From assembly GCF_020253525.1 (NCBI RefSeq), contig NZ_JADCBK010000004.1, forward strand, positions 52,261-116,260: a DNA stretch of 64,000 bases, given 5' to 3'. The stretch comes from Aquidulcibacter sp. (GTDB taxonomy: Bacteria; Pseudomonadota; Alphaproteobacteria; Caulobacterales; Aquidulcibacteraceae). Made by a program: the position numbers and the translations under genes. How positions within the stretch are numbered: the stretch's first letter is position 1; the number at the start of each line of letters is the position of its first letter. Below are positions 10,338 through 53,174 of this stretch, piece by piece. The notes beneath the pieces were generated by a model, which did no database searches, was not told where the DNA came from, and saw only the letters and a program-made list of their open reading frames with translations.

Positions 10338-11516
10338 TTAGGTGCGCTCTAGGCAGATGGCAGTGGCTTCCCCCCCACCAATGCACAGGCTGGCCAGCCC
10401 GCGCTTTGCGCCTCGCGCTTCCATTGCAGCGATCAAGGTCGCGATGATGCGGGAGCCCGACGAGCCGATTGGGTGGCCCAAGGCACAAGCCCCACCATTC
10501 ACATTCACCTTCTCATGCGGGATGCCCAAATCTTTCATGGCAATCATCGGCACAATGGCGAAAGCCTCATTGATCTCAACCAGATCAACATCCTCAACCG
10601 ACCAACCCGCCTTGCTCAGCGCCTTTTGCATGGCTTTGACGGGGGCGGTGGTGAAATAGGCAGGCTCGTGCGCATGGGCGGCACTTGAGACGATTTCGGC
10701 TAGGATTTTCAGGCCGCGCGCTTCGGCCTCAGATTTTGACATCAGAACAAGGGCGGAGGCACCATCGGAAATGGCAGAGGCATTGGCCGCGGTCACCGTG
10801 CCCTCCTTGGTGAAGGCAGGCTTCAAGCTGGGGATTTTCTCTGGGCGGGCCTTGGCGGGCAGTTCATCGCGATCCACCACACTTTCACCGCCTCGGCCGC
10901 TGATGGTGACGGGGGCAATTTCGCGAGCAAATGCCCCAGAGGCAGTGGCAGCTTGCGCCCGCTTCAACGTCTCCAGCGCATAGGCATCTTGCGCCTCACG
11001 GGTGAATTGATACTCACCGGCCACTTGGTCGGCATAAAAGCCCATCGGCTTGCCTTCATAGGCATCTTCCAGACCATCGAGTGCCATATGGTCAAAAATC
11101 CGGTCATGGCCATATTTCATGCCGCCGCGGTGGGTCTTCATCAGATGGGGCGCGTTCGACATGCTCTCCATCCCGCCAGCGATCACAATTTTGGCTTCGC
11201 CTGCCTTGATAGCATTGGCGGCCATGATCGTGGCCTGCATGCCAGAGCCGCACATCTTGTTGAGCGTGGTGGCTTCAACACTGATCGGCAGACCCGCTTT
11301 TAGGGCCGCCTGCCGCGCGGGGGCTTGGCCTTGGCCGGCAGGCAGAACATTGCCCATCAAGATCCAATCCACATCTTCGCCTGCAACGCCTGCTTCGGCC
11401 ATGGCGGCCTTAACGGCGATGGCCCCCAATTCATTAGCGCTAAAGCTGCTCAATTCCCCCAACAACCCACCCATGGGCGTACGGGCCAAACCAACGATGA
11501 CGACGGGGTCTTGCAT
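10338..11516 (-). CDS. Acetyl-CoA C-acyltransferase (thiolase)
   Basis: NKMCGSG, EINEAFA, GHPIGSSG, LCIGGGEA motifs. Confidence 0.95.
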   Translation of the reverse strand: MQDPVVIVGLARTPMGGLLGELSSFSANELGAIAVKAAMAEAGVAGEDVDWILMGNVLPAGQGQAPARQAALKAGLPISVEATTLNKMCGSGMQATIMAANAIKAGEAKIVIAGGMESMSNAPHLMKTHRGGMKYGHDRIFDHMALDGLEDAYEGKPMGFYADQVAGEYQFTREAQDAYALETLKRAQAATASGAFAREIAPVTISGRGGESVVDRDELPAKARPEKIPSLKPAFTKEGTVTAANASAISDGASALVLMSKSEAEARGLKILAEIVSSAAHAHEPAYFTTAPVKAMQKALSKAGWSVEDVDLVEINEAFAIVPMIAMKDLGIPHEKVNVNGGACALGHPIGSSGSRIIATLIAAMEARGAKRGLASLCIGGGEATAICLERT

Positions 11517-11546
11517 GAAGATTTCCTTAGTTAAGCGAGAGCGAAA

Positions 11547-12974
11547 TCACGTCTCTTCAGAATAAGCGCTCAAGGGCGTCACGTCACCCCTATTGGCGAT
11601 CAAAGCTTTCCGACGGCAGAAGCGCTGGAAGCCCGCAGGCCCCATTCGAGAACCGCCTAAACCGCTTGCCTTAAAGCTCTGCTTTTCGGCTTCATAAAAT
11701 TGGCTGGTCAAAGCTGCATCATTCAAGCTGATGGCCCCGGCTTCAATCTGGCGACCAATGGCTTCAGCCTCGTCCAAAGTGCCGGCAATCACGGCGGCCG
11801 ATAGGCCATACTCGGTGTCATTGGCCAGTTGGATCGCCTCTTCAATCGTATCAAATGCCATGACGGGCATCACGGGGCCAAAGGTTTCCTCCCGCATCAG
11901 GGCCATGCTGTGATCGACATTGACCACCACCGTGGGCGCAATCCAGTCCCCGCCCAAATGATGCTCCACAACGCCACCAGTCAGCACGTTCGCGCCCTTG
12001 GCGACCGCATCGGCCAGTTGGGTCGCGATGATGGCGGCCTGCTTGCCAAAAATCATCGGTCCAATCTCGCCCATATTTCGGTCAGGCTGATTGAGGCGTG
12101 CCGCCTTGGCTGCCACAACTAAGCGCGCGACAAAATCCTCATAAAGCGGGCGGGCAACATAAATGCGCTCAATCGACTGGCAGGCTTGGCCAGTCGACAG
12201 AACCGAGCCGCGTAATGCCGCCGTCACGGCTCGGTCGAGATCTGCGGTTTCTGTGATGATCAATGGGTCCTTGCCGCCCAGTTCTAAGAAGGCGGGGATC
12301 AACCTTCCTGCGGCTTGGACAGCCACTTTTTTGCCCGTGGCCACTGAGCCCGTAAAGCAAATCGCATCCACCACATCGATCAAAGCAATACCTGTTCCCC
12401 CATCCCCCAACACCAGTTGCAGCACGCCTTCTAAAGCTGGGACTTCGGCAATCGCCGCGCGTAAGGGCGAGACAAAGCGCGGCGTGACTTCCGATGGTTT
12501 GATGATGACGCTGCACCCAGCCAAAAGCGCCGGGATTGTGTCGATCATGGATAGGGTCAGCGGGAAATTCCACGGGCTGATCACGCCCACCAGCGCGTAG
12601 GGCACCCATTGCGGGGCATGGGCCATGCGTGGATCAAAGCGTCCATCGGTCCAAGCTGTTGGCAAAAGATGTGGCGCTTGGGCAGCCCACCCGCCCAGAC
12701 TTGCCAAAGCCCCTTCAATCTCGCGCCGCGCAATCTTGCCCCGCCCCGTATCCTCGGCAAGCGCCGCATGGATGGAGTCAAAATGGCGGGAAACGGCTGC
12801 TTGAAACTCCAAAAGTGCTTGCGCGCGCCCCTCAAGACCTAAAGCCTGCCAAGCCGTCTGGGCGGCACGCGCGCGGGACGCGAGCGCTTGAACCGCCTCA
12901 ACATCTGCCGCCTCAATCCTGAAGTCGACTTGGCCCGTGCGTGGATTTTTGACGTCTAGGTCGCGTCTGCTCAT
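11547..12974 (-). CDS. Aldehyde dehydrogenase family protein
   Basis: ISPWNFP, KPSE, FTGS, LELGGKD, GQACQSIER, EETFGP motifs. Confidence 0.92.
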   Translation of the reverse strand: MSRRDLDVKNPRTGQVDFRIEAADVEAVQALASRARAAQTAWQALGLEGRAQALLEFQAAVSRHFDSIHAALAEDTGRGKIARREIEGALASLGGWAAQAPHLLPTAWTDGRFDPRMAHAPQWVPYALVGVISPWNFPLTLSMIDTIPALLAGCSVIIKPSEVTPRFVSPLRAAIAEVPALEGVLQLVLGDGGTGIALIDVVDAICFTGSVATGKKVAVQAAGRLIPAFLELGGKDPLIITETADLDRAVTAALRGSVLSTGQACQSIERIYVARPLYEDFVARLVVAAKAARLNQPDRNMGEIGPMIFGKQAAIIATQLADAVAKGANVLTGGVVEHHLGGDWIAPTVVVNVDHSMALMREETFGPVMPVMAFDTIEEAIQLANDTEYGLSAAVIAGTLDEAEAIGRQIEAGAISLNDAALTSQFYEAEKQSFKASGLGGSRMGPAGFQRFCRRKALIANRGDVTPLSAYSEET

Positions 12975-14560
12975 AGGCCTAATACCCCGGGATTCATGCG
13001 ATGATGTGGATCAAGATGGGCCTTGATCGCCTTAAGAAGCGCCCAGGTGACCGGCTCACGGGTTTGGGCATAACGATAGGTGCGGCCAATTTGGAAATGG
13101 GTTGCCCCGAAGCGCTCGAAGATGTCGAGTATTTTGCCGCGCACTTCATCCACCAAGGCTGCATTATCGGCATTGGCGGGCAGCTTTGGCACTTTGGCCA
13201 AGTAGGACGGTTCGAGCGTGGTTTCATGAATGCCATAGCGCGCGTCTGGCCAGAAGAAGACGGGCTCAATCAAAAAGCCATTGGTGCTGATGGTGGTCAC
13301 CAAATAACCACTTGTCATGCCGCGTGCTTCAAAATCCTTGCCGTAAGAAGCAAACAAATCATCCAAAGCCTGCCAGCAAGGCTCACCCTGTGACAGCGGC
13401 ACAATGCCATGGATCGGCACCCACCGTTCGCCGTCTGGACCCAGAATATTATTGAGCGGGGTAAAGGGTGCGGCGCGCATCGCTTTGGGAATGGTATTCT
13501 CAATTTCCCGCCCGCCATGGCTCTTCACAAGCTCGCGCAAGGTTCGGGCAGCATCCTCGACTTGGGCAGCCGAAGCGCCTTCGGTGATCAGATGCAAAGT
13601 ATAGCCCGCATCATCCATGAAGCCACGGCCTGCCAGAGCCATTTTCGCGCCCTGCTTGACCCCTTCAAACATGTTTTTCTGCGCGCCAATGACTGCGGCA
13701 AGGGTTTTTACGTCCTGCAATAGACTGGCGCGTCGCATGCGAATTTTTGCGAGATTGGGGTCAAAGGCGCAGACTTCGCTGGCTAAATTGGTGCGCGCGA
13801 CTGCAGCTGTGGCGCGTGCCGTGGCGGCTAAATCAGGCAAGGCAAAGCTTAAGTGCGCTTCATGGGCAGGGGCCGGGATCAGCCGTAAGGTGACTTCAGC
13901 CTTGATGCCCAGCGCACCACAATCGCCACAGAATAGGCCTGTTAAGTCCGGTCCATAATGTTTGAAGAAGGGGCTGCCGCCAATCGTCCCCGCACTGCCA
14001 GTTCGCACGATGCTGCCATCGGCCAAGACCACAGTCAGACAGGTAACGCTTTCTGAAGTTGTGCCCCAAATGCCCGCACCAAAAAAGGCGTTTAATTGCG
14101 ACAGGCCACCGCCAATCGTCGAGCTAATGCCCGAAAGTGGCCCCCAAAACGGGGTGCGCAGCCCATGTGGGGTTAGGGCGGCTTGCAAGGATGCCCACGT
14201 TGCACCAGCCTGTACCGTCACCAACATATCTTCAGGACTGACTGAGATGACCTGATCCATGCGCCGCGTATCGATAAGGACGGCTCCGGCCTGATCGGTG
14301 ACAAAGCCTGAGGTATAGCTCATACCGCCGCCACGCGGCACGATGATGGCCCCGGCTTGATGGGCCGCCTCCAAAACGTGCGACAATTCTTGGGTGGTGG
14401 CTGGCGCGACAACCAGGCCTGCGACACCGCCTTGGCTGAAAACATCCTCACTCATCGCGCGGCGGGTATCCTCGTCGCGTGAGACATATTCTGCCCCAAT
14501 CAGCTGAGCCAGACGGTCGGCCAGAGCCATAAGTGTTGGAGCTGGTTCAGCCATGATCAA
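12971..14560 (-). CDS. FAD-binding oxidoreductase (VAO/PCMH, D-2-hydroxyacid dehydrogenase-like)
   Basis: PRGGGMSY, TIGGGLS, GDCGALG and C-terminal DPHHRMNPG. Confidence 0.88.
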   Translation of the reverse strand: MIMAEPAPTLMALADRLAQLIGAEYVSRDEDTRRAMSEDVFSQGGVAGLVVAPATTQELSHVLEAAHQAGAIIVPRGGGMSYTSGFVTDQAGAVLIDTRRMDQVISVSPEDMLVTVQAGATWASLQAALTPHGLRTPFWGPLSGISSTIGGGLSQLNAFFGAGIWGTTSESVTCLTVVLADGSIVRTGSAGTIGGSPFFKHYGPDLTGLFCGDCGALGIKAEVTLRLIPAPAHEAHLSFALPDLAATARATAAVARTNLASEVCAFDPNLAKIRMRRASLLQDVKTLAAVIGAQKNMFEGVKQGAKMALAGRGFMDDAGYTLHLITEGASAAQVEDAARTLRELVKSHGGREIENTIPKAMRAAPFTPLNNILGPDGERWVPIHGIVPLSQGEPCWQALDDLFASYGKDFEARGMTSGYLVTTISTNGFLIEPVFFWPDARYGIHETTLEPSYLAKVPKLPANADNAALVDEVRGKILDIFERFGATHFQIGRTYRYAQTREPVTWALLKAIKAHLDPHHRMNPGVLGL

Positions 14561-14566
14561 GATCCT

Positions 14567-15223
14567 TTAAAGCGGTTTAGCTAAGCCCAAAAAAGCCGCA
14601 GCGAGCAATAGAAGCCAAATGGTGACGACCAGCGGGCGGCTTTCATCTAAAGCGCGCGCAATCTCTTGATCGACCTCAGGACTAGCGCCTTCTTGCACAA
14701 GACGTCCAAAGGCCGGGCCAAAGCGAACCAGCGCACGACGGATCAACAAGCCGCACAGGATGGTGGCGGCAAGGATGGCGCATTTGGCCTTTAAAAAAAG
14801 CGGCAAGGCTGGTGCTTGGGGCCAGAGGTTCAAAGCGAGAATGGCCAAGACGGCGATCATGGCCCAACGAATGGCGAGGTCGGCTCGACGTGCGAGGGAC
14901 GTTGGCCCCACGTGTCGCAGGTGCAGCACCCAAGCGAGGACGAGCCAGATCAGGCCGAAGGTCCAAATCAAGGCAAGGCTGAAAGGCCCCAAGATCAGCC
15001 AACCCTTAAGCGCGGCCAAGGTCAGCCCCGTCGGCAGGGTCAAGATCATCGCCGTGCGCGGGGCCATGTCGACCTGCGCCAAAACTTGCGCCGCTGCGAT
15101 GCGTGCTGCTGCCGGCTGCTTGGGATTGGTTAGAATGGTGGAGCTATAAAACACGCCCAAATCGCCGCCGAGCCAATAGACGAAGACGAGAAGATGCAAG
15201 AGCGTGAAAAGGGCTAAGTCCAC
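14567..15223 (-). CDS. Uncharacterised multi-pass membrane protein
   Basis: About 5 hydrophobic segments; HLLVFVYWLGGDLGVF N-terminal motif; ends 6 bp before the FAD oxidoreductase. Confidence 0.75.
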   Translation of the reverse strand: MDLALFTLLHLLVFVYWLGGDLGVFYSSTILTNPKQPAAARIAAAQVLAQVDMAPRTAMILTLPTGLTLAALKGWLILGPFSLALIWTFGLIWLVLAWVLHLRHVGPTSLARRADLAIRWAMIAVLAILALNLWPQAPALPLFLKAKCAILAATILCGLLIRRALVRFGPAFGRLVQEGASPEVDQEIARALDESRPLVVTIWLLLLAAAFLGLAKPL

Positions 15224-15244
15224 TTCAGTGCCGATCCGTTCAAA

Positions 15245-15262
15245 TGATATATTTCTATATCA
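15245..15262. promoter_or_regulatory. Palindrome TGATATA-TTTC-TATATCA, candidate operator for the 15223->11547 unit
   Basis: Perfect 7-bp arms, 22 bp upstream of the GTG at 15223. Confidence 0.5.
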
Positions 15263-15288
15263 ATTAATTGGATCCGTTCGCAAGCCAA

Positions 15289-45980: not shown

Positions 45981-46074
45981 GTTATCATCCCGAACAGCGT
46001 CAGCCGCGTCCCAGACCTTGTGGTGCAAACTCGCTGAGGTCCCCGCTCTTCGCTGACGCTTCGACGGGGATGAC
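45981..46074. repeat. REP/RPE-like palindromic element (TCATCCC...GGGATGAC)
   Basis: Imperfect terminal inverted repeat TCATCCCG..AGCGTCAGC / GCTGACGCT..CGGGGATGAC; only one copy seen in the window. Confidence 0.55.
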
Positions 46075-46092
46075 ATCGTGGGGGTGGCGCGT

Positions 46093-47289
46093 TTAGTCTT
46101 GCCAAACTGGCAGGGTCATGGCCGGGAAAAGGCTGGCGAGACCGAGGGCGATGTCTTCACGGCCGGGTGCCGTCATGGCATGGAATCCGATGGGCAAGCC
46201 GTCGATCAGGCCCATGGGCGCGCTGATCGCAGGCAGGTCGCCGACATTGGCATACATGGTGGCATAGGCCTGATCCACGGGCGGGCCGACATCGTGATCA
46301 AAGGCAAGGTGCGAAACGGTCGGGCTGATCACGCCCGCCAAGTCTTCGCGCGCAAAACAGCGACGCAACCGTTCCTTGGTAAGCGCGATCGTCTCATAAG
46401 CCTGTTCAATCCGGGCTTGCGGCGCGCCTTGGCCATAGAGCAGCATGGCCCTAAATTCAGCCGTTAAGCCTGATGCTGGGTCGGCTAGTTCAGCAGCCCA
46501 TTCACGCGCGCCTTCCACTTCGCACACCAACAGACAAGCCAACACGACGTCAATGTCGGTGAAGCCCAAAGCCAGATCAATCTCGATGACCTCTGCCCCC
46601 GCGTCGCGCAAGCGTTGGCATGCCGCTGCAAAGCTGGGCTGGATCAGCGTTGGTGGGGCTACACGGTCGCGGGCCACGGCAAAACGTAAGCCCTGCAGCG
46701 AGGTCAGTGGGGCAGGCGCGCCCAAGACTTTCGCGACAGCCCAAAGTGTTTCAGGATCTTTGGCCAAAGGTCCAACTTGATCCAAAGTGGTCGACAAGGG
46801 CACGACACCGCTCTGGGACACCAAAGTGCCCGAGGGCTTCCAGCCATACACGCCACAATAAGAAGCCGGCAGACGGATGGAGCCCATCGTGTCGGTCCCC
46901 AAAGCCGCATCGACAAGACCTGCAGCGATTGCCGCACCCGATCCACCCGACGAGCCGCCGGGTGAGAAATTGGGCCGCCACGGGTTGATACAGCGGCCAT
47001 AAGCCTTGTTGTCGGTCGTGGCCCCCAGGGCACCTTCATGCATATTCAGGGTGCCGACAATCTCAGCCCCCGCCTCACGCAACAACGCGACAACGGGAGC
47101 ATCATGGGTGGCAATTGCGTGGCGGCGGGCTTGCGAGCCAGCCGTATTGGCAAGGCCCTGAACCGCAATATTGCCCTTTACCCCCAGCCGAAGACCTGCA
47201 AGCGATCCTTGTTCGTTTGGCGGGGTCTCATCAAAGGCGATGAAGGCCTTGAGGGCTTGATTGGCGGCGAGAAGTTTTGCGTGATCCAT
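46093..47289 (-). CDS. Amidase signature family protein
   Basis: VKGN, GGSSGGS, GTDTMGSIRLPASYCG. Confidence 0.92.
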   Translation of the reverse strand: MDHAKLLAANQALKAFIAFDETPPNEQGSLAGLRLGVKGNIAVQGLANTAGSQARRHAIATHDAPVVALLREAGAEIVGTLNMHEGALGATTDNKAYGRCINPWRPNFSPGGSSGGSGAAIAAGLVDAALGTDTMGSIRLPASYCGVYGWKPSGTLVSQSGVVPLSTTLDQVGPLAKDPETLWAVAKVLGAPAPLTSLQGLRFAVARDRVAPPTLIQPSFAAACQRLRDAGAEVIEIDLALGFTDIDVVLACLLVCEVEGAREWAAELADPASGLTAEFRAMLLYGQGAPQARIEQAYETIALTKERLRRCFAREDLAGVISPTVSHLAFDHDVGPPVDQAYATMYANVGDLPAISAPMGLIDGLPIGFHAMTAPGREDIALGLASLFPAMTLPVWQD

Positions 47290-48671
47290 CAGCGGTGGTC
47301 TAGCAGGCGAATGGGCTTTTGTCTGGACTCAATCTGGGTCAAAGCAGCGGTGCCGCCGGGCGGCACCAATTCGACCTGGGCTTCAATGCCCAGCTTGCGC
47401 TTCAAGGTCTCGCGATAGGCTTCGGGATTACCACCGCGATCTTCACACACCACGATCAGCTCGTCGCGGCCCTGCCCATCACGCACGACTTTACAGATCC
47501 ACTCGCCCGCAAAGGCTGGAAGCTCTGCCAGTATCGGCCCGACGGCTTGCGGGAAGACATTGATGCCGCGCAGCTTCACCATATTGTCGGATCGACCGAG
47601 GAAGCCTTCAATGCGTTTGAACTGCACGCTAATCGCGCTTGTGTCGGTGCGGAAGGCACTGACGTCATGGGTGTTGAAGCGGATGATGGGATAGACATCG
47701 TCCTTGAACAGACAAGTCACGACTAGATCGCCTGTTTGGCCGTCCGGTACGGGTTGTGCGGTGTCGAGATCGCAGATTTCCACCCAGTGCGCGTCTTCCA
47801 TCACATAATGACCATCCCGGTCGGGGCCTTCGCCTGCGATCATGCCGGTATCGCCGACGCCATACCAGTCATAGCAGGCCGCCCCACCCCAAAGGGCAGA
47901 GACCGCATCCTTATCTTCCCGGCCAAATTGGCCCGAGATCATGCGAATGGGGATGTCCACCCCGGGCTCTAGCCCTTCAGCGCGGGCCACTTCTGCCAGC
48001 TTTTTGATATAGTCGGTGAAGCCCAAAATCACCGTTGCGCCAAAGTCGCGCATCAGGCCCACCTGCGCCGCACTGCGTGTTTCGATGCCGGTGCCCGCCG
48101 ACATGAAGGTTGCGCTGGTCCAGCGGGTGACGGCCTCGCGGATATAATGCCCGCCATTGATCATGCCGTGACCATAGACGGAATGGACGACATCGCTGGG
48201 GCGCATGCCCTGCCAGCGGAACAGGCGGGCGAGCAAGAGGTTCTGCACCTCCCGGGTTTTGGCCCCAAAGAAGAGCGGCTGGGGTCGCCCCGTTGTACCG
48301 CTGGTCGTGTGAAAAATCATCGGCGGGCGGGCACCATCGGGATAGGAATCCAAGCCCGCAAAGTCACCAAACGGGGGGTGGAGCGCAATACTTTCGACAA
48401 CTTCTTGCTTGCCGAAAGTGGGCAATTTGGGCAAATCGTCGAGCGAGCGGATGTCGCCTGCTTCAATGCCATGCTTGCCCCACAGGCGTTGATAAAAGTG
48501 GGTCTTGGCCGCCCGCGCCATGAGCTTTTGAAACAGGCGCTCTTGATGGGCGCGTAACTGGTCGCGACTGATGCTGGTTGCCATCTTCACAAAGTCATCG
48601 CCAATCGGGTGGTCTTTGAGGAGGGCTGGATAATCGAGGCTTTGGGCGAAGCTGGTGTGTAAATCCGTCAC
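47289..48671 (-). CDS. Phenylacetate-CoA ligase (PaaK)-like AMP-forming ligase
   Basis: HTTSGTTGRP, WYGVGD, GRSDNMVKLRGINVFP. Confidence 0.88.
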   Translation of the reverse strand: MTDLHTSFAQSLDYPALLKDHPIGDDFVKMATSISRDQLRAHQERLFQKLMARAAKTHFYQRLWGKHGIEAGDIRSLDDLPKLPTFGKQEVVESIALHPPFGDFAGLDSYPDGARPPMIFHTTSGTTGRPQPLFFGAKTREVQNLLLARLFRWQGMRPSDVVHSVYGHGMINGGHYIREAVTRWTSATFMSAGTGIETRSAAQVGLMRDFGATVILGFTDYIKKLAEVARAEGLEPGVDIPIRMISGQFGREDKDAVSALWGGAACYDWYGVGDTGMIAGEGPDRDGHYVMEDAHWVEICDLDTAQPVPDGQTGDLVVTCLFKDDVYPIIRFNTHDVSAFRTDTSAISVQFKRIEGFLGRSDNMVKLRGINVFPQAVGPILAELPAFAGEWICKVVRDGQGRDELIVVCEDRGGNPEAYRETLKRKLGIEAQVELVPPGGTAALTQIESRQKPIRLLDHR

Positions 48672-50074
48672 GAGAGGATCCCTGCGGCAAGGCGGCCCAA
48701 CAGGCCGACATCAGTGAGTTCGGTCAGCTGGTCTGTGGCCTCGATAAGGGCGTCTTCCAGCTCAGGATTGGCCCGGCCAAAGCCAAAGGCGCAACAGGCT
48801 CGGAACTTTGCCAGATGGGCTTGCCGGCTCAAGGGGCGTTGGGGTGTGCCCAAAAGTTTGTCGATTGCCACGTCCAGAACCCGACCATCCTTCAGAACGG
48901 CGCGCGCCGATTGCGGCACAAAGGCAGAGGCTTCTGTCACCTCATTGACAACAACTTTGATGCGAGCCGCAAGCGCATGAATCGCCGGATCATTGAGGCG
49001 ATCTGGTGTAAAGTCTGTCAGCCCGACATCGCCCTTAGTCAAAGCAATCGCGCCGACATAGGGCAGACACAAACGGGCATAATTGACTTCCAATGGCGGG
49101 GGCGCGATGGGGCGACCGACCAGATGGTGGATCAAGGGCGGGGCTGAAATCGTCAGATGGTCGAGATTGTCGGCCGTCAGACCTTGGCGCGCCAAGTCTT
49201 GGATCATGTCGATCCCCCCGTGGGAGGCGCGACCACTGGGGAAGGGTTTCCAACTGACCTCTGCGGCGCGCCAATTTTGGCCAAGGCTTGCCATCACAGG
49301 CTCTAACGCTATGTCGCGTTCAAACAGCGAGAGATAGCCGAACGGCCCATCGATGGATCCCATGGGTCCGGGCAGACCTGCTTCGACCAAATCAACCGCG
49401 ACAAAGGCAGAGCGGGCGGCCCCGGCGACACTAGCCGCCAAAGCGGGCGTGCCTTCAACATGGGCCTGCATCGTGCCGGATGCAAAGGCAAGCGCATAGC
49501 CAAAAGCGTGGGCCGTTTGGTCCGCACTTAAGCCTCTGGCATGAGAAAGTGCCGCGACCGCGCCGAACAGGCCACAGGTGGCAGGTCGAAAGAAGCGGAT
49601 TTGGGACTTTGCCGCGACACCGAGGCCTGCTGCAACATCAACCCCGATCGCCGCCGCAGAAACATAGCGTTCACCACTGAGGCCTACCCGTTGTGCGTCC
49701 GCCAGTAAGACCGGGACTACCACGGTGAACGGGTGCAAAACCGCCCCCTCATGCACACAATCAAACTCTAACGCATGGGCCTGAAACGCATTGACGAAGG
49801 CGGCATGGGGGGCGGGCAAAGCTTCTCCGGTGGCAAAAACATTCGCATGGGTCCCATCGCCCCATGCTGCTGCCGCTTGGCGGACACCTGCTGCATAGGG
49901 GGAACGGGTGCCCGCAATTCCAACGCCAATCAAATCCAAGGTAAAGTTGCGGACAGCTTGGACCACTTCGGGCGGTAGATTGGCCAAAGTGGTTGAGGCC
50001 ACATGTTGGGCGAGCTTTTGCGCCGCTGTGTGTGGCGCATCCGTCTGTATAGACTCTGAGCTTTGTCCGGACAT
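48668..50074 (-). CDS. MmgE/PrpD family protein
   Basis: NAFQAHALEFDCVHEGAVLHP, KPFPSGRASH; ATG 50074 avoids a head-to-head overlap. Confidence 0.9.
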   Translation of the reverse strand: MSGQSSESIQTDAPHTAAQKLAQHVASTTLANLPPEVVQAVRNFTLDLIGVGIAGTRSPYAAGVRQAAAAWGDGTHANVFATGEALPAPHAAFVNAFQAHALEFDCVHEGAVLHPFTVVVPVLLADAQRVGLSGERYVSAAAIGVDVAAGLGVAAKSQIRFFRPATCGLFGAVAALSHARGLSADQTAHAFGYALAFASGTMQAHVEGTPALAASVAGAARSAFVAVDLVEAGLPGPMGSIDGPFGYLSLFERDIALEPVMASLGQNWRAAEVSWKPFPSGRASHGGIDMIQDLARQGLTADNLDHLTISAPPLIHHLVGRPIAPPPLEVNYARLCLPYVGAIALTKGDVGLTDFTPDRLNDPAIHALAARIKVVVNEVTEASAFVPQSARAVLKDGRVLDVAIDKLLGTPQRPLSRQAHLAKFRACCAFGFGRANPELEDALIEATDQLTELTDVGLLGRLAAGILS

Positions 50075-50096
50075 ATTGGGGACATAGCATGCTATG
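50046..50096. promoter_or_regulatory. Candidate HutC-type operators and palindromes at the divergon junction
   Basis: TGTATAGAC 50046-50054, TGTCCGGACA 50064-50073, CATAGCATGCTATG 50083-50096. Confidence 0.55.
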
Positions 50097-50155
50097 AGGG
50101 AAGCGCAATCGCTCTGACCCATTTTGCCGATCGAGACTGGAAAAACCTGCAGACC

Positions 50156-51445
50156 ATGACGCCTAGGCCACCCAATGCCCCATCCTTGAAACTGCCTTCG
50201 CCGGCAGAGGCAGCGAGACTATTGGCTGAACGGGCGCGCGGCGGGCGTGTTTTCATTCCAGCAGGGCCAGTGGAGCCTTTAACCTTGGCAGAAGCTTTTC
50301 GGGAAAGTCCCGGACTGGCCGATGGGGTGAGCTTTTGTGGCCTGTTCATTCCGGGGCTTAATCGTTTGGATTGGGCTGCACTATCGCCCGAAGCACAAGC
50401 AGAGGTTTTTCTGCCAAGCCCTGACTTTGCGGCGACCATCGCCACGGGGCAGACCCGCGTGATCCCCAGTCATTATTCAGCCGCTTGGCGCTTCTTCCAG
50501 ACGGCACCGTTCAAGGCGGCGGTGTTTCACCTTTCCCCACCAGATGTCGATGGCTTTTGCTCGCTGTCCTTATCGGCGGATGCAAGCCCAGCCTTTTTTG
50601 ATCGCGCTGTTTTTAAATTAGGCTTGATCAATCCCAGCTTGCCCGTGGTGCGGGGGGCGCCAAAGCTGCATTTAGGCGCTTTGGATGCGTGGGTGGAGGC
50701 CGATGCCCCGCCTGCGGAATTATCGACGCCAGCGCCTTCGGGTGATGTGCATGCCTTGGTTCAGCACGTGACAGGCTTGATTGAGGATGGGGCGACATTG
50801 CAGGCGGGGATTGGCAAATTGCCCGGTGCGATTATGGCGGGGCTGACCAACCGCCGCGGGCTGTCCATCCATTCGGGCTTGATTGGCGACTGGGTCCTGC
50901 CGCTAATGGAGGCTGGGGCCTTGGCAGAAGCCGAGGGAAGTTTGAAGGCTGGCGCTATTCTTGGCAGTCACACACTGCAGACCCGTATGGCGCAAGAGCC
51001 GCGCTTAAAGCTGATCCCGATTGCCGAGACCCACGGCGCGGCCCATCTTGGCGCGATTGCGCGCTTTATCAGCCTCAATGCGGCGCTGGAGGTAGATTTG
51101 TTCGGCCAGATCAATTGTGAGTTCGCTGGATCGCGCACCTTGGCAGGCGTTGGCGGGGCGGTCGATTTCTTGCGTGGCGCGCGTCTCAGCCCCGGTGGCA
51201 AGCCCATCGTGATGGTGCAAAGTCTCGGCAGGCAAGGAGAAAGCCGAATTGTGCCGCGCCTTAGCGCACCGAGTGTGTCTATCGCCCGCTCTGACGCGCC
51301 GATTTTGGTGACCGAGCACGGTGCAATTGATCTTGAACCCCTCGACAGCGAGGCGCGCGCCCAAGCAATCATCTCGCTCGCAGCCCCTCAGCATCGTGCG
51401 GACTTGTTGGCCGCTTGGGCGCAACACAAAGGTGGCAAACTATGA
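50156..51445 (+). CDS. Acetyl-CoA hydrolase / family I CoA transferase (4-hydroxybutyrate CoA-transferase-like)
   Basis: LQAGIGKLP, LEVDLFGQ (catalytic Glu), GVGGAVDF, VTEHG. Confidence 0.88.
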   Translation: MTPRPPNAPSLKLPSPAEAARLLAERARGGRVFIPAGPVEPLTLAEAFRESPGLADGVSFCGLFIPGLNRLDWAALSPEAQAEVFLPSPDFAATIATGQTRVIPSHYSAAWRFFQTAPFKAAVFHLSPPDVDGFCSLSLSADASPAFFDRAVFKLGLINPSLPVVRGAPKLHLGALDAWVEADAPPAELSTPAPSGDVHALVQHVTGLIEDGATLQAGIGKLPGAIMAGLTNRRGLSIHSGLIGDWVLPLMEAGALAEAEGSLKAGAILGSHTLQTRMAQEPRLKLIPIAETHGAAHLGAIARFISLNAALEVDLFGQINCEFAGSRTLAGVGGAVDFLRGARLSPGGKPIVMVQSLGRQGESRIVPRLSAPSVSIARSDAPILVTEHGAIDLEPLDSEARAQAIISLAAPQHRADLLAAWAQHKGGKL

Positions 51446-52158
51446 GTGCGCCCAACTCCCTCTATCGCCGTTTGGCAGATGAGTTGCGCAAAGCGATTGC
51501 GTCTGGCCAGTATCCAACCGGCAGCCTACTTCCTACTGAATCTGACCTGTGTGCCACCCATCAAGTCTCACGCCATACCGCCCGTGACGCCTTGCGTATC
51601 CTAACCGATGAAGGCCTGATTGAGCGGCGGCGGGGTGCAGGTTCCGTTGTGATTGCCGCCAAACCCGTTGGCCCCTTCTCGCAAGGCTGGGGCGAGATTG
51701 GCGATATTCTTCAATATGCGCGCGATACGCGCCTTGTCATTCAAAGCTATGGCGTCGCTGATCCCGCAGATTTGGTGGCTATGGGCCTTGACCCAACGTT
51801 GGATTGGATCGGGATTGATGGTCTGCGGGTGCGCGCAAGCGGCGGCAGACCTCTCGCCCATACCCGCATCTGTGTCCGGGCAGACCTTGCGCCACCGCGC
51901 GCCGCTTTGGACGATTGGCCCCATGCCATTGCCGAATATATCGCTCGCCATTCTGGGGTTCTGGCGGCCACGATTGAGCAGGATATTTCCGCGATCAAGT
52001 TAAGCCGCGACCTAGCCAAGCGCCTGCACGAGCATGCGGGCGATCCAGCACTTCGCACACGGAGACGCTATGGCGATGCTTCGGGCCATATTTATCAAGC
52101 CAGCATCAGCATCCATCCGGGCGAGCATTTCACCTATTCGATGTCGGTTAGTCGCTAA
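51442..52158 (+). CDS. HutC-subfamily GntR regulator (UTRA domain)
   Basis: LPTESDL...VSRHTARDAL HTH and C-terminal UTRA-like region; ATGA overlap with the upstream gene. Confidence 0.9.
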   Translation: MSAPNSLYRRLADELRKAIASGQYPTGSLLPTESDLCATHQVSRHTARDALRILTDEGLIERRRGAGSVVIAAKPVGPFSQGWGEIGDILQYARDTRLVIQSYGVADPADLVAMGLDPTLDWIGIDGLRVRASGGRPLAHTRICVRADLAPPRAALDDWPHAIAEYIARHSGVLAATIEQDISAIKLSRDLAKRLHEHAGDPALRTRRRYGDASGHIYQASISIHPGEHFTYSMSVSR

Positions 52159-53174
52159 CTTGCCATCATCATAATGCCGACGCCTGTGGCGGAGATAGCG
52201 GCAATAATGGCGGTCTGGATCAGAAGGGCTCCTACCGCGCGTGGGCCCAACAGCATCACGCCCTTGATTGAGGTATTGGCCCCTAAAGCGACCATCGAGA
52301 CGATCAAGCAGATGCTGGAAATCTTGGTCAGGGCGGCAATGCCTTCAGGCGTCAACCAGCCTGTATTGGCGACCACGATGGCGGCCACAAAGCCCAAGAG
52401 GAAAACCGGCACGGTGGCTTCATTTTCTTCCTGTTCGCCTTCTTTCCGGTCGCGCCAAGACAAGATCATCAACAGGCCAAAGATCACGACCGGCATCATG
52501 GCTACGCGGATCATTTTAACGGTGGTGGCTGCAGGGGTTGCCGCTTCGCCATAGACGTCCGACGCCGCAACGACTTGGGCAACTTCATGGATGGATGCGC
52601 CGAGGAACACCGCTGAAGGAATCATTGGGATATTGAAGAAGTGACACAACGCCGGATAGGCCACCACAGCAATCGTTCCGATAATGGTAATGCTCGCCAC
52701 GGTGGCGACCACGTCGCGCTCCACATTGGAATTGGGACGGCGCGCCAAAACTGTGGCAATCGCCAAAGCGGCCGAAGCCCCGCAAATCGCAACCGAGGTC
52801 GCCGTCAAGAACGCCGTGGCGCGCGGAAGTTTCAAAGCGCGTCCGGCGAGATAGCCTAAGCATAAGGTGCCAAAAGCGGCAGAGACTGCGATTACGGCGG
52901 GTTGCCAGCCCAGGGCCTGCAAGTCTGAGATTGTGATCCGAAAGCCCATCAGGGCAACGCCAACCCGCAACAAAGGCTTCGCCAATAGATCATTGCCGGG
53001 CTTAAAGGCGGGCTTGGTCAACACAATCGCTGCCAACATGCCAAGAAGCAAAGCGATCAACAGGGTGGGAACGCGCGTGCCTTGGGTCGGAAAATAAGCG
53101 ATGGCGGCCAGAAACAGGCCCAAGCCTACACCGGGGCCAAACTTTGAAAGCGATTTAATCATTAGGCCCCACAC
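52155..53174 (-). CDS. YeiH / putative sulfate exporter (PSE) family membrane protein
   Basis: LLRVGVALMG, SVAICGASAALA, GASIHEVAQVVA, KMIRV. Confidence 0.9.
   Translation of the reverse strand: MWGLMIKSLSKFGPGVGLGLFLAAIAYFPTQGTRVPTLLIALLLGMLAAIVLTKPAFKPGNDLLAKPLLRVGVALMGFRITISDLQALGWQPAVIAVSAAFGTLCLGYLAGRALKLPRATAFLTATSVAICGASAALAIATVLARRPNSNVERDVVATVASITIIGTIAVVAYPALCHFFNIPMIPSAVFLGASIHEVAQVVAASDVYGEAATPAATTVKMIRVAMMPVVIFGLLMILSWRDRKEGEQEENEATVPVFLLGFVAAIVVANTGWLTPEGIAALTKISSICLIVSMVALGANTSIKGVMLLGPRAVGALLIQTAIIAAISATGVGIMMMAS

Follow-up and report, generated by a model that had tools for sequence, protein, structure and literature searches.

Organization of the divergon

The stretch analysed here (the window) comprises 64,000 nucleotides of contig NZ_JADCBK010000004.1 of Aquidulcibacter sp. 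(Caulobacterales, close to 'Hyphomonadaceae bacterium UKL13-1'), positions 52,261 to 116,260, and the system in question is a divergon of five genes at 46093-52158, in which a PrpD-ligase-amidase triad is transcribed away from the genes for a CoA-transferase and a regulator. Protein families were assigned with Pfam and NCBIfam, and the features of the locus are as follows.

45981-46074: imperfect REP-like (repetitive extragenic palindromic) hairpin directly past the amidase stop, the outer boundary of the module and a rearrangement point
46093-47289, minus strand: amidase-signature amidase of the short form, 398 amino acids (PF01425, E 2e-72, 245 bits)
47289-48671, minus strand: PaaK-like adenylate-forming acyl-CoA ligase, 460 amino acids (AMP-binding; PF14535 matched)
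48668-50074, minus strand: divergent MmgE/PrpD-family protein of the 'PrpD2' clade, 468 amino acids (MmgE_PrpD_N and MmgE_PrpD_C)
50064-50073: operator TGTCCGGACA, a perfect palindrome overlapping the PrpD ATG (50074-50072)
50084-50097: 14-bp perfect palindrome CATAGCATGCTATG inside the 81-bp control region, overlapping the putative PrpD -10
50156-51445, plus strand: CoA-transferase of the 4-hydroxybutyrate CoA-transferase / RipA type, 429 amino acids (AcetylCoA_hyd_C, PF13336)
51442-52158, plus strand: GntR/UTRA regulator of the HutC subfamily, 238 amino acids (PF00392 and PF07702)

The five open reading frames, their overlaps and the 81-bp control region that a sequence-only reading of this DNA had described are borne out by the sequence, and its family assignments agree with both databases, although none of the five proteins reaches an NCBIfam equivalog cut-off. 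The PrpD stop and ligase start share GTGA (4-bp overlap), the ligase stop and amidase start share TGATG (1-bp overlap) and the transferase stop and regulator start share ATGA (4-bp overlap); the divergent spacer of 81 bp (50075-50155) separates the ATG of PrpD (50074) from that of the transferase (50156). Genes of a housekeeping or otherwise unrelated kind flank the divergon, dapB and a 145-amino-acid open reading frame on one side and YeiH and coaBC on the other. Synteny with three congeneric genomes (L025, L027 and L028) stops at C102:98263-98362, which corresponds to window 46003-46102, and beyond this breakpoint each congener runs on into a different contig of the present genome (C40, C99 and C144). 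The hairpin region at 45981-46102 thus looks like a recombination hot spot at a REP-like repeat.

Conservation of the triad

A scan with the ligase alignment, taking one genome per species, returned at least 589 related stretches, and the locus counts given below refer to the best 80 of these. The amidase and PrpD genes are each present in 75/80 loci, the regulator gene in 56/80 and the 4-hydroxybutyrate-type transferase gene in 44/80. Wherever all three triad genes occur they stand in the order PrpD-ligase-amidase on the same strand, with the amidase last (69/69), and the regulator gene is divergent and upstream of PrpD in all 56 loci that hold it. Likewise, every contig with a PrpD relative at 53-70% identity carries the PrpD-ligase-amidase set together with a divergent GntR/UTRA gene. 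This arrangement is far from chance, and the co-conservation that had been set beforehand as a test of the sequence-only reading is found. A plasmid search with the ligase returned one true relative, Tistrella pTM2, which has the same five-gene core and no adjacent C5 module (see below), and a Variovorax homologue that is 38% identical and lies in an unrelated context. In one genome of the order the ligase orthologue (G036:C1:337257-338645) has an in-frame TAA, which could mean a pseudogene or a sequencing error. Our literature searches returned no description of a PrpD-ligase-amidase set, nor one for cyclic-imide/half-amidase genes or maleimide catabolism.

Ligase, amidase, CoA-transferase and regulator

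The ligase has a full set of adenylation motifs. It carries the P-loop TSGTTG at residues 123-128 and a C-terminal Lys452 in RQKPIR, both invariant in the ligase alignment; with the P-loop, PF14535, the catalytic Lys and PaaK structures as its best PDB matches, it belongs to the PaaK-like subgroup of the ANL enzymes. Its nearest PDB neighbours are PaaK (4r1l, 3e-43) and then 2-hydroxyisobutyryl-CoA synthetase (6hdw, 1e-34), and the latter likeness indicates that the PaaK-like subgroup can act on small branched acids. The ligase is 64-87% identical across Caulobacterales. Phenylacetate-CoA ligase PaaK itself is ruled out, because the protein scores 144.6 bits against TIGR02155 with a cut-off of 646 and the genome lacks PaaA/PaaC (no match to PF05138 in the genome).

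Some PaaK-like ligases form amide or ester bonds, and the ligase has weak NCBIfam matches to FlxY and to BagE/FevW-type amide- or ester-forming enzymes. This could point to a biosynthetic or modifying role, in which the ligase would form an amide or ester and the cluster would make a small signalling or secondary metabolite from a C5 diacid. However, these matches fall far below the cut-offs, no carrier proteins, exporters or tailoring enzymes accompany the genes, and the context is a catabolic one with a GntR/UTRA repressor, CoA-transferases, a dehydrogenase, a hydratase, a lyase, an aldehyde dehydrogenase and amidohydrolases; we therefore consider a biosynthetic role highly improbable.

The amidase has the putative catalytic residues of the amidase-signature family, to which it belongs: K38 (in GVKGN), the GGSSGGS stretch at 111-117 and S137 (in GSIR). 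Its whole length can be aligned with malonamidase E2 (1ock), a half-amidase of a dicarboxylate, and with 2dc0. The window amidase is about 40% identical to the amidases of other genera (36-45% outside the genus) and about 45 residues shorter.

The closest PDB neighbours of the transferase are 4-hydroxybutyrate CoA-transferases (9vag, 5e-58; 3gk7, 2e-51), and it also matches, less closely, 3qli, deposited as 'Coenzyme A transferase' (5e-35), and 4n8h (about 5e-35). The last two entries are RipA of Yersinia pestis. The window transferase is of the same 4-hydroxybutyrate-CoA-transferase-like family as 3qli and 4n8h, but unlike in the RipABC system of Yersinia no RipB or RipC gene is adjacent, and the closest PDB relatives are the 4-hydroxybutyrate enzymes. 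RipA is the itaconate CoA-transferase of the Yersinia-type cluster (PMC12290011). As for the regulator, HutC proper is ruled out by a score of 85.6 against TIGR02018 (cut-off 220) and by a neighbourhood without hut genes; the GntR/UTRA protein is presumed to be a repressor binding TGTCCGGACA.

The MmgE/PrpD protein

The window PrpD matches PF03972 with 159 bits and PF19305 with 97 bits, both domains exceeding the gathering score, and is thereby a member of the MmgE/PrpD superfamily; it is the only MmgE/PrpD protein encoded in this genome. A tree of 99 PrpD sequences from related loci separates into two clades, an upstream paralogue clade (PrpD1) and a ligase-adjacent clade (PrpD2) that includes the window protein. 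For comparison, the Msi of Pseudomonas aeruginosa was taken from L107 (NZ_CP131792.1, 708332-723537); this record is an 847-kb P. aeruginosa sequence deposited as a 'plasmid' and holds a complete PA0878-PA0883-type cluster together with a TRAP transporter. In Msi, the carboxylate ligands are His88, Glu91, His152, Lys202 and Lys266 and the catalytic residues His102 and Tyr148; enolisation is carried out by His102 and Lys266, the epimerases use Tyr148 as their second base, and the substrate carboxylates are held in part by His152 and Lys202, these residues being described as conserved in all family members (PMC12290011).

The PrpD1 clade shows 33-39% identity to Msi and keeps E91, H102, Y148, H152, K202 and K266. 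The PrpD2 clade shows 25-28% identity (28% for the window protein) and keeps the equivalents of Msi H88, E91, H102 and K266 (H100, E103, H114 and K276 in the window protein), but in all 47 members examined Tyr148 is deleted, His152 is replaced by Phe (F162 in the window protein) and Lys202 by Leu (L212). An independent HMMER alignment to cis-aconitate decarboxylase (CAD, 7br9) gives the same picture, with H159 replaced by F and no Lys at K207. The window's clade has in addition a strictly conserved residue set of its own: E109, R163, H205, E252, R334 and C336. Since the His/Lys pair is kept and two carboxylate ligands are lost, the window PrpD looks like an active enzyme that would enolise a succinate-like backbone with one of its carboxylates masked or replaced.

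Two named functions are ruled out for this protein. It is not Msi, as the residue mapping shows; the Msi-like paralogue belongs to the other clade and is absent from this genome, and the Msi gene's place beside methylsuccinyl-CoA dehydrogenase is not found either, the divergon having no acyl-CoA dehydrogenase gene and the Mcd-like gene lying on C144/C99. Nor is it 2-methylcitrate dehydratase, with 40.7 bits against NF042438 (cut-off 950); no PrpB above cut-off is encoded in the genome, where the sole prpB-like match lies in a LeuCD-like operon on C129 (PrpC was not searched).

These features bear on the possibility that no amide is involved and that the triad is an ATP-driven activation of free itaconate, methylsuccinate, mesaconate or citramalate, with PrpD as a free-acid isomerase and the amidase doing something incidental, for instance removing a dead-end adduct or amide. 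That the ligase is the most conserved protein (64-87%) and the amidase the least (36-45% outside the genus) would suit it, as would a PaaK-like ligase already known for a small branched acid (6hdw) and Aquidulcibacter genomes without an Msi-like paralogue, for which the window PrpD might substitute. Yet every complete ligase locus has the amidase gene in translational coupling, the missing carboxylate-binding residues, two that Msi, CAD and IDS epimerase possess, argue against a free dicarboxylate, and CoA-transferases for the free acids are already there. We consider this explanation unlikely.

A C5 dicarboxylate module accompanies the triad

The divergon does not stand alone in most genera. 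Within 10 kb of the ligase gene, two family III CoA-transferases (the first in 47/80 loci, the second in 49/80), an acyl-CoA dehydrogenase (42/80), a short MaoC protein, 'MC_hydratase' (38/80), and an HpcH-type lyase (36/80) are encoded. A second PrpD paralogue, the Msi-like PrpD1, is found in 49/80 loci over the same distance, with a crotonase (ECH, 38/80), an aldehyde dehydrogenase (29/80), an FAD oxidase (24/80), a protein of 148 amino acids (29/80) and a CN-hydrolase (26/80). The canonical order, as in locus L103, begins with HpcH, MaoC, dehydrogenase, transferase 3a, transferase 3b and the 148-amino-acid protein, continues with the regulator and transferase 1 on the opposite strand and then PrpD1, PrpD2, ligase and amidase, and ends with ECH, aldehyde dehydrogenase, FAD oxidase and a membrane protein on the opposite strand. 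HpcH, MaoC, the dehydrogenase and the family III transferase are equivalent to Ccl, Ich, Mcd and Ict of the itaconate/methylsuccinate pathway (PMC12290011), and we refer to these genes as the C5 module and to the whole as the supercluster.

In the present genome the module is distributed among contigs. One end of C144 (C144:3-2173) carries HpcH and MaoC (together C144:810-2173) and the 5' part of the dehydrogenase gene, C99:49104-55129 carries the remainder of that gene and the two family III transferases, and ECH and the 148-amino-acid protein are encoded on C116. In complete genomes of the same genus the hydratase gene lies 10-13 kb from the ligase gene. The synteny of the congeners ends after the amidase stop, each of them then continuing into a different contig, which indicates that the module was once adjacent and later scattered; on this gene-order evidence, the C5 module is ancestrally adjacent to the triad and has since been shuffled in this genus. 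Phyletic distribution, as strong though not independent evidence, couples the two halves as well: among 151 high-quality genomes of the order, 33 encode ligase and hydratase, none the ligase only, two the hydratase only and 116 neither.

One operator at both promoters

The operator TGTCCGGACA reads ATGTCCGGACAA in the PrpD orientation, in which it contains the start codon and encodes M-S-G-Q. It is found in 26 of 27 non-redundant spacers between the regulator/transferase gene and PrpD. The 3.49-Mb genome holds five copies, each extended to TTTGTCCGGACA, where a Markov-1 model predicts 2.4 copies of the 10-mer and about 0.4 of the extended TTTGTCCGGACA in both orientations. Besides that of the divergon, the copies are:

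C144:2184: at the start of HpcH-MaoC-dehydrogenase
C72:7844: upstream of a DUF1838 gene and a glutathione S-transferase (GST) gene, directly downstream of a TonB-dependent receptor gene
C91:22172: before a second acyl-CoA dehydrogenase gene
C126:3567: before an RpoH-like sigma factor gene, with a DUF3108 gene beside it

Over the 80 loci, the operator is found mainly in the PrpD/regulator spacer (about 54 loci) and directly before HpcH (at least 14). Roughly a dozen other copies have no labelled neighbour gene, and most of these lie near the 5' end of the module. The same operator stands at both promoters, here and in other genera, and this is direct sequence evidence for one regulator, that of the divergon, which would control both the triad and the C5 module. 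The neighbours of the C72, C91 and C126 copies are possible extra members of the regulon; DUF1838 and DUF3108 genes also occur inside the Hyphomonadaceae supercluster. The AlphaFold model of the DUF1838 protein on C72 has a predicted local distance difference test score (pLDDT) of 41. One-mismatch variants of the operator, of which the genome has 23, gave no convincing tie to other supercluster genes.

A scan of the region for consensus sigma-70 promoters and terminators gave nothing informative, with no sigma-70 match in the 81-bp spacer, and the PrpD start has no Shine-Dalgarno sequence. By our own reading, a Caulobacter-type promoter-like arrangement, following the generally known pattern, is present as TTGCGC, 14 nt and GCTATGTC, ending 7 nt before the PrpD ATG. 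With the operator on the ATG, no Shine-Dalgarno sequence and the promoter end 7 nt upstream, this suggests that the PrpD mRNA, if the promoter is real, would be leaderless and repressed at its own start site.

A proposed detached branch of a dicarboxylate regulon

We propose that the divergon forms the regulatory centre of a larger conserved regulon and also serves as its amide-handling, CoA-activating branch. The regulon, which is common in Caulobacterales and elsewhere in the Alphaproteobacteria, would break down branched dicarboxylates (C4/C5) of the itaconate/methylsuccinate/mesaconate type; to this reading we assign a probability of about 0.6. The C5 genes are found elsewhere in the genome, are adjacent to the triad in most other genera and lie under the same operator, so that the five genes are, on the evidence of synteny and shared operator, a detached branch of a known breakdown system and not a stand-alone pathway.

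The sequence-only reading had called the divergon self-contained, a pathway for an amide or N-acyl carboxylate that would be mechanistically independent of the itaconate/methylsuccinate genes. Here and in A. paucihalophilus TH1-2 the five genes do stand alone between YeiH and the rearrangement point, and Tistrella pTM2 has GntR, transferase, PrpD, ligase and amidase genes without an adjacent C5 module. Against such independence, the hydratase is encoded in 33/33 ligase-bearing genomes of the order, the C5 module adjoins the triad in most genera, both promoters carry the same operator, and the transferase counts as a RipA-family protein; we hold this very unlikely, and the claim of self-containment falls with the C5 genes on C144 and C99. 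The absence of MaoC, the citryl-CoA-lyase-like gene, prpB/prpC and paa genes, which that reading had noted, is true of the window, whereas genome-wide it fails for MaoC and the lyase, both on C144. Its 'undescribed pathway' survives insofar as no literature on the triad was found, but the triad is a branch of a known pathway whose other genes lie elsewhere. A mapping of the set onto such a pathway had been named as one outcome that would overturn it, and this has come about by half: the downstream C5 genes were found, and the role of the triad is undescribed.

Several points weigh against the proposed regulon. Three of the five operator copies (C72, C91 and C126) adjoin genes without a clear role, and the ligase-bearing genomes are interrelated and not independent samples, the 33 genomes coming from 14 of 40 genera. 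The PuuE-like and other amidohydrolase genes, discussed below as a source of the substrate, lie within 10 kb of the ligase gene in only 17-26 of the 80 loci and have no TGTCCGGACA in this genome, so that the C5 module has the stronger tie to the triad. The shorter, diverged window amidase may differ in specificity from those of other genera, and the step order and the half-amide substrate of PrpD are drawn only from gene order and lost residues.

Proposed mechanism

An amide-bearing carboxylate is still the most sensible substrate class. The substrate would be a half-amide of a substituted succinate or maleate. Its probable source is a cyclic imide, or else a related small N-heterocycle, opened by PuuE-type hydrolases whose genes lie elsewhere in the genome. 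The supercluster is accompanied by PuuE-like CE4 hydrolases, a CN-hydrolase and an isochorismatase-type hydrolase, all of which this genome encodes at other places, and the best PDB relatives of the supercluster CE4 proteins are PuuE allantoinases. PrpD, with His114 and Lys276 kept, would isomerise the half-amide, either shifting a double bond or exchanging the C2 proton; the PaaK-like ligase would then thioesterify the free carboxylate at the expense of ATP, and the amidase would free the second carboxylate to give an acyl-CoA of defined regiochemistry. The dehydrogenase, hydratase and lyase would convert this to pyruvate and an acyl-CoA, the RipA-like transferase would activate free diacids or recycle CoA, and the GntR/UTRA protein would repress both operons at TGTCCGGACA until a pathway intermediate binds. 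This order of steps is taken from the gene order, and it would account for an amidase coupled behind a CoA ligase and for the carboxylate ligands lost from PrpD; it is tentative, and we give it roughly half the probability of the regulon reading itself.

Comparison with known systems

In Pseudomonas, Cupriavidus and Yersinia, the known pathway of itaconate and methylsuccinate catabolism takes three to five genes. Among known systems the nearest is the P. aeruginosa PA0878-PA0883 / Cupriavidus necator cluster with Ich, Mcd, Msi, Ict and Ccl (Gonner et al. 2025, PMC12290011). In its downstream half, the regulon resembles this cluster through its MaoC hydratase, acyl-CoA dehydrogenase, family III CoA-transferases and HpcH/CoA-ester lyase, and in both an MmgE/PrpD protein is associated. 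The Pseudomonas/Cupriavidus cluster lacks a PaaK-like ligase, an amidase and a 4-hydroxybutyrate-type transferase, all three of which the divergon has, whereas the present genome lacks PrpD1 (Msi-like) and has its module split over several contigs. With Ich and Ccl absent from the window, the locus by itself is not an itaconate cluster; at the level of the regulon (C144, same operator) the two are present.

In bacterial cyclic-imide metabolism, as in Blastobacter, an imidase and a half-amidase lead to a dicarboxylate. The logic of a ring-opening hydrolase, a half-amide amidase and a diacid is shared, and PuuE-like CE4 proteins and three kinds of amidase accompany the supercluster, but that pathway has neither a CoA ligase nor a PrpD protein, the window has no ring-opening genes, and the comparison is one by description only. 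The nicotinate fermentation of Eubacterium barkeri employs a dimethylmaleate hydratase (DmdAB) and a 2,3-dimethylmalate lyase. A similar architecture is found on C129:36000-48000 (L115), where over 3612-7693 of L115 GntR/UTRA and YCII genes are divergent from genes for a LeuC-like protein, a LeuD-like protein and a lyase of the phosphoenolpyruvate-mutase/isocitrate-lyase family that scores 296 bits against the prpB model (cut-off 354). The LeuCD-like aconitase pair followed by the lyase, beside the second GntR/UTRA gene of the supercluster, resembles DmdAB and its lyase by architecture only; the LeuCD-like pair and the PrpB-like lyase lie within the supercluster in other genomes, but here, unlike the divergon, this operon is outside the window and has no TGTCCGGACA site.

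A further operon of the supercluster in the window

A detached operon of the same supercluster lies in the window at 11547-15223 on the minus strand:

11547-12974, minus strand: aldehyde dehydrogenase
12971-14560, minus strand: FAD_binding_4 oxidase
14567-15223, minus strand: membrane protein

These three proteins are 47-66% identical orthologues of the Aldh-FADox-u211 proteins encoded after the amidase and ECH in L021 and about 24-29 of the 80 loci; no TGTCCGGACA site is found at this operon. The same minus-strand operon, at 10338-15223 in full, also holds a thiolase gene, and the membrane protein has 218 amino acids and several transmembrane helices. An AT-rich motif of the GATATAT type upstream of the trio (about 15240-15270) recurs between ECH and the 148-amino-acid gene on C116 and may be the site of the second GntR/UTRA regulator.

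Tetrapyrrole fragments as possible substrates

Several barrel proteins in and around the supercluster, belonging to kinds known for tetrapyrrole binding, the LeuCD/lyase pair and the hosts hint at tetrapyrrole substrates, although they are suggestive only. A CpeT/CpcT-family gene lies, with TonB-dependent receptor genes, between the amidase and CN-hydrolase genes in 5/80 loci, of the Brevundimonas/Phenylobacterium type and non-photosynthetic:

L039, L043, L046, L051 and L055, at about 14.4-17.9 kb in each: CpeT/CpcT-family insertion

A Blc lipocalin gene (185 amino acids) lies between the dehydrogenase and family III transferase genes (C99:44000-55130), as it does in L026, L027 and L032, an arrangement of the Aquidulcibacter lineage; Fe/Mn superoxide dismutase and DUF2332 genes follow the transferases on C99 and in the same three loci. 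The 148-amino-acid protein (L021:13905-14351; here C116:40123-40569) has no Pfam family and is highly conserved, at 36-81% identity between genera. AlphaFold predicts it as a ten-strand calycin barrel (pLDDT 95.7); among its best structural matches are DUF3598/BFA1, the CpcS-like Ycf58, CpeS (an S-type phycobilin lyase) and nitrobindin, which binds haem. With many invariant polar residues, its conservation pattern looks more like that of an enzyme than of a carrier. Most hosts are associated with blooms or algae (Aquidulcibacter, Phycosocius, Hyphomonas and Hirschia).

The whole regulon might then be the bacterial route that is missing for small pyrrole derivatives from chlorophyll, haem and bilins, among them alkyl-methyl-maleimides and -succinimides, BOX-type pyrrolinone acetamides and the imide of hematinic acid. 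PuuE-like hydrolases would open the imides, the amidase, ligase and PrpD would handle half-amides or acetamide side chains, and the resulting 2-methyl-3-R-substituted diacids would be split to pyruvate and an acyl-CoA or acid, with the CoA module, or else the LeuCD-like hydratase and PrpB-like lyase, carrying out the cleavage. Substituted maleimides and related amides are well known as monopyrrole breakdown products of chlorophyll, haem and bilins (for example PMC7318184 and PMC5997574), and our literature search found no bacterial catabolic route for maleimide-type monopyrrole products. The calycin fold is generic and the CpeT-like gene is present in only 5/80 loci, both of which weaken the idea, and we regard it as distinctly unlikely.

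Significance

New here are the operator shared by two promoters, the near-perfect phyletic coupling of ligase and hydratase, the residue-level split of the two PrpD clades, the assignment of the transferase to the RipA family and a supercluster scattered in this genus from an adjacent ancestral state. The divergent PrpD breaks the rule of family-wide carboxylate-binding residues and points to a new reaction or substrate class, and one regulator with one 10-bp site offers a direct experimental handle on the inducer. Where methylsuccinate-type acids come from in the environment has yet to be settled (PMC12290011). Their pathway is fused, in at least 589 related stretches, to an invariant PrpD-ligase-amidase set and to ring-opening and amide-cleaving enzymes, and such a fusion would imply an abundant, as yet unnamed nitrogen-containing precursor of branched diacids.

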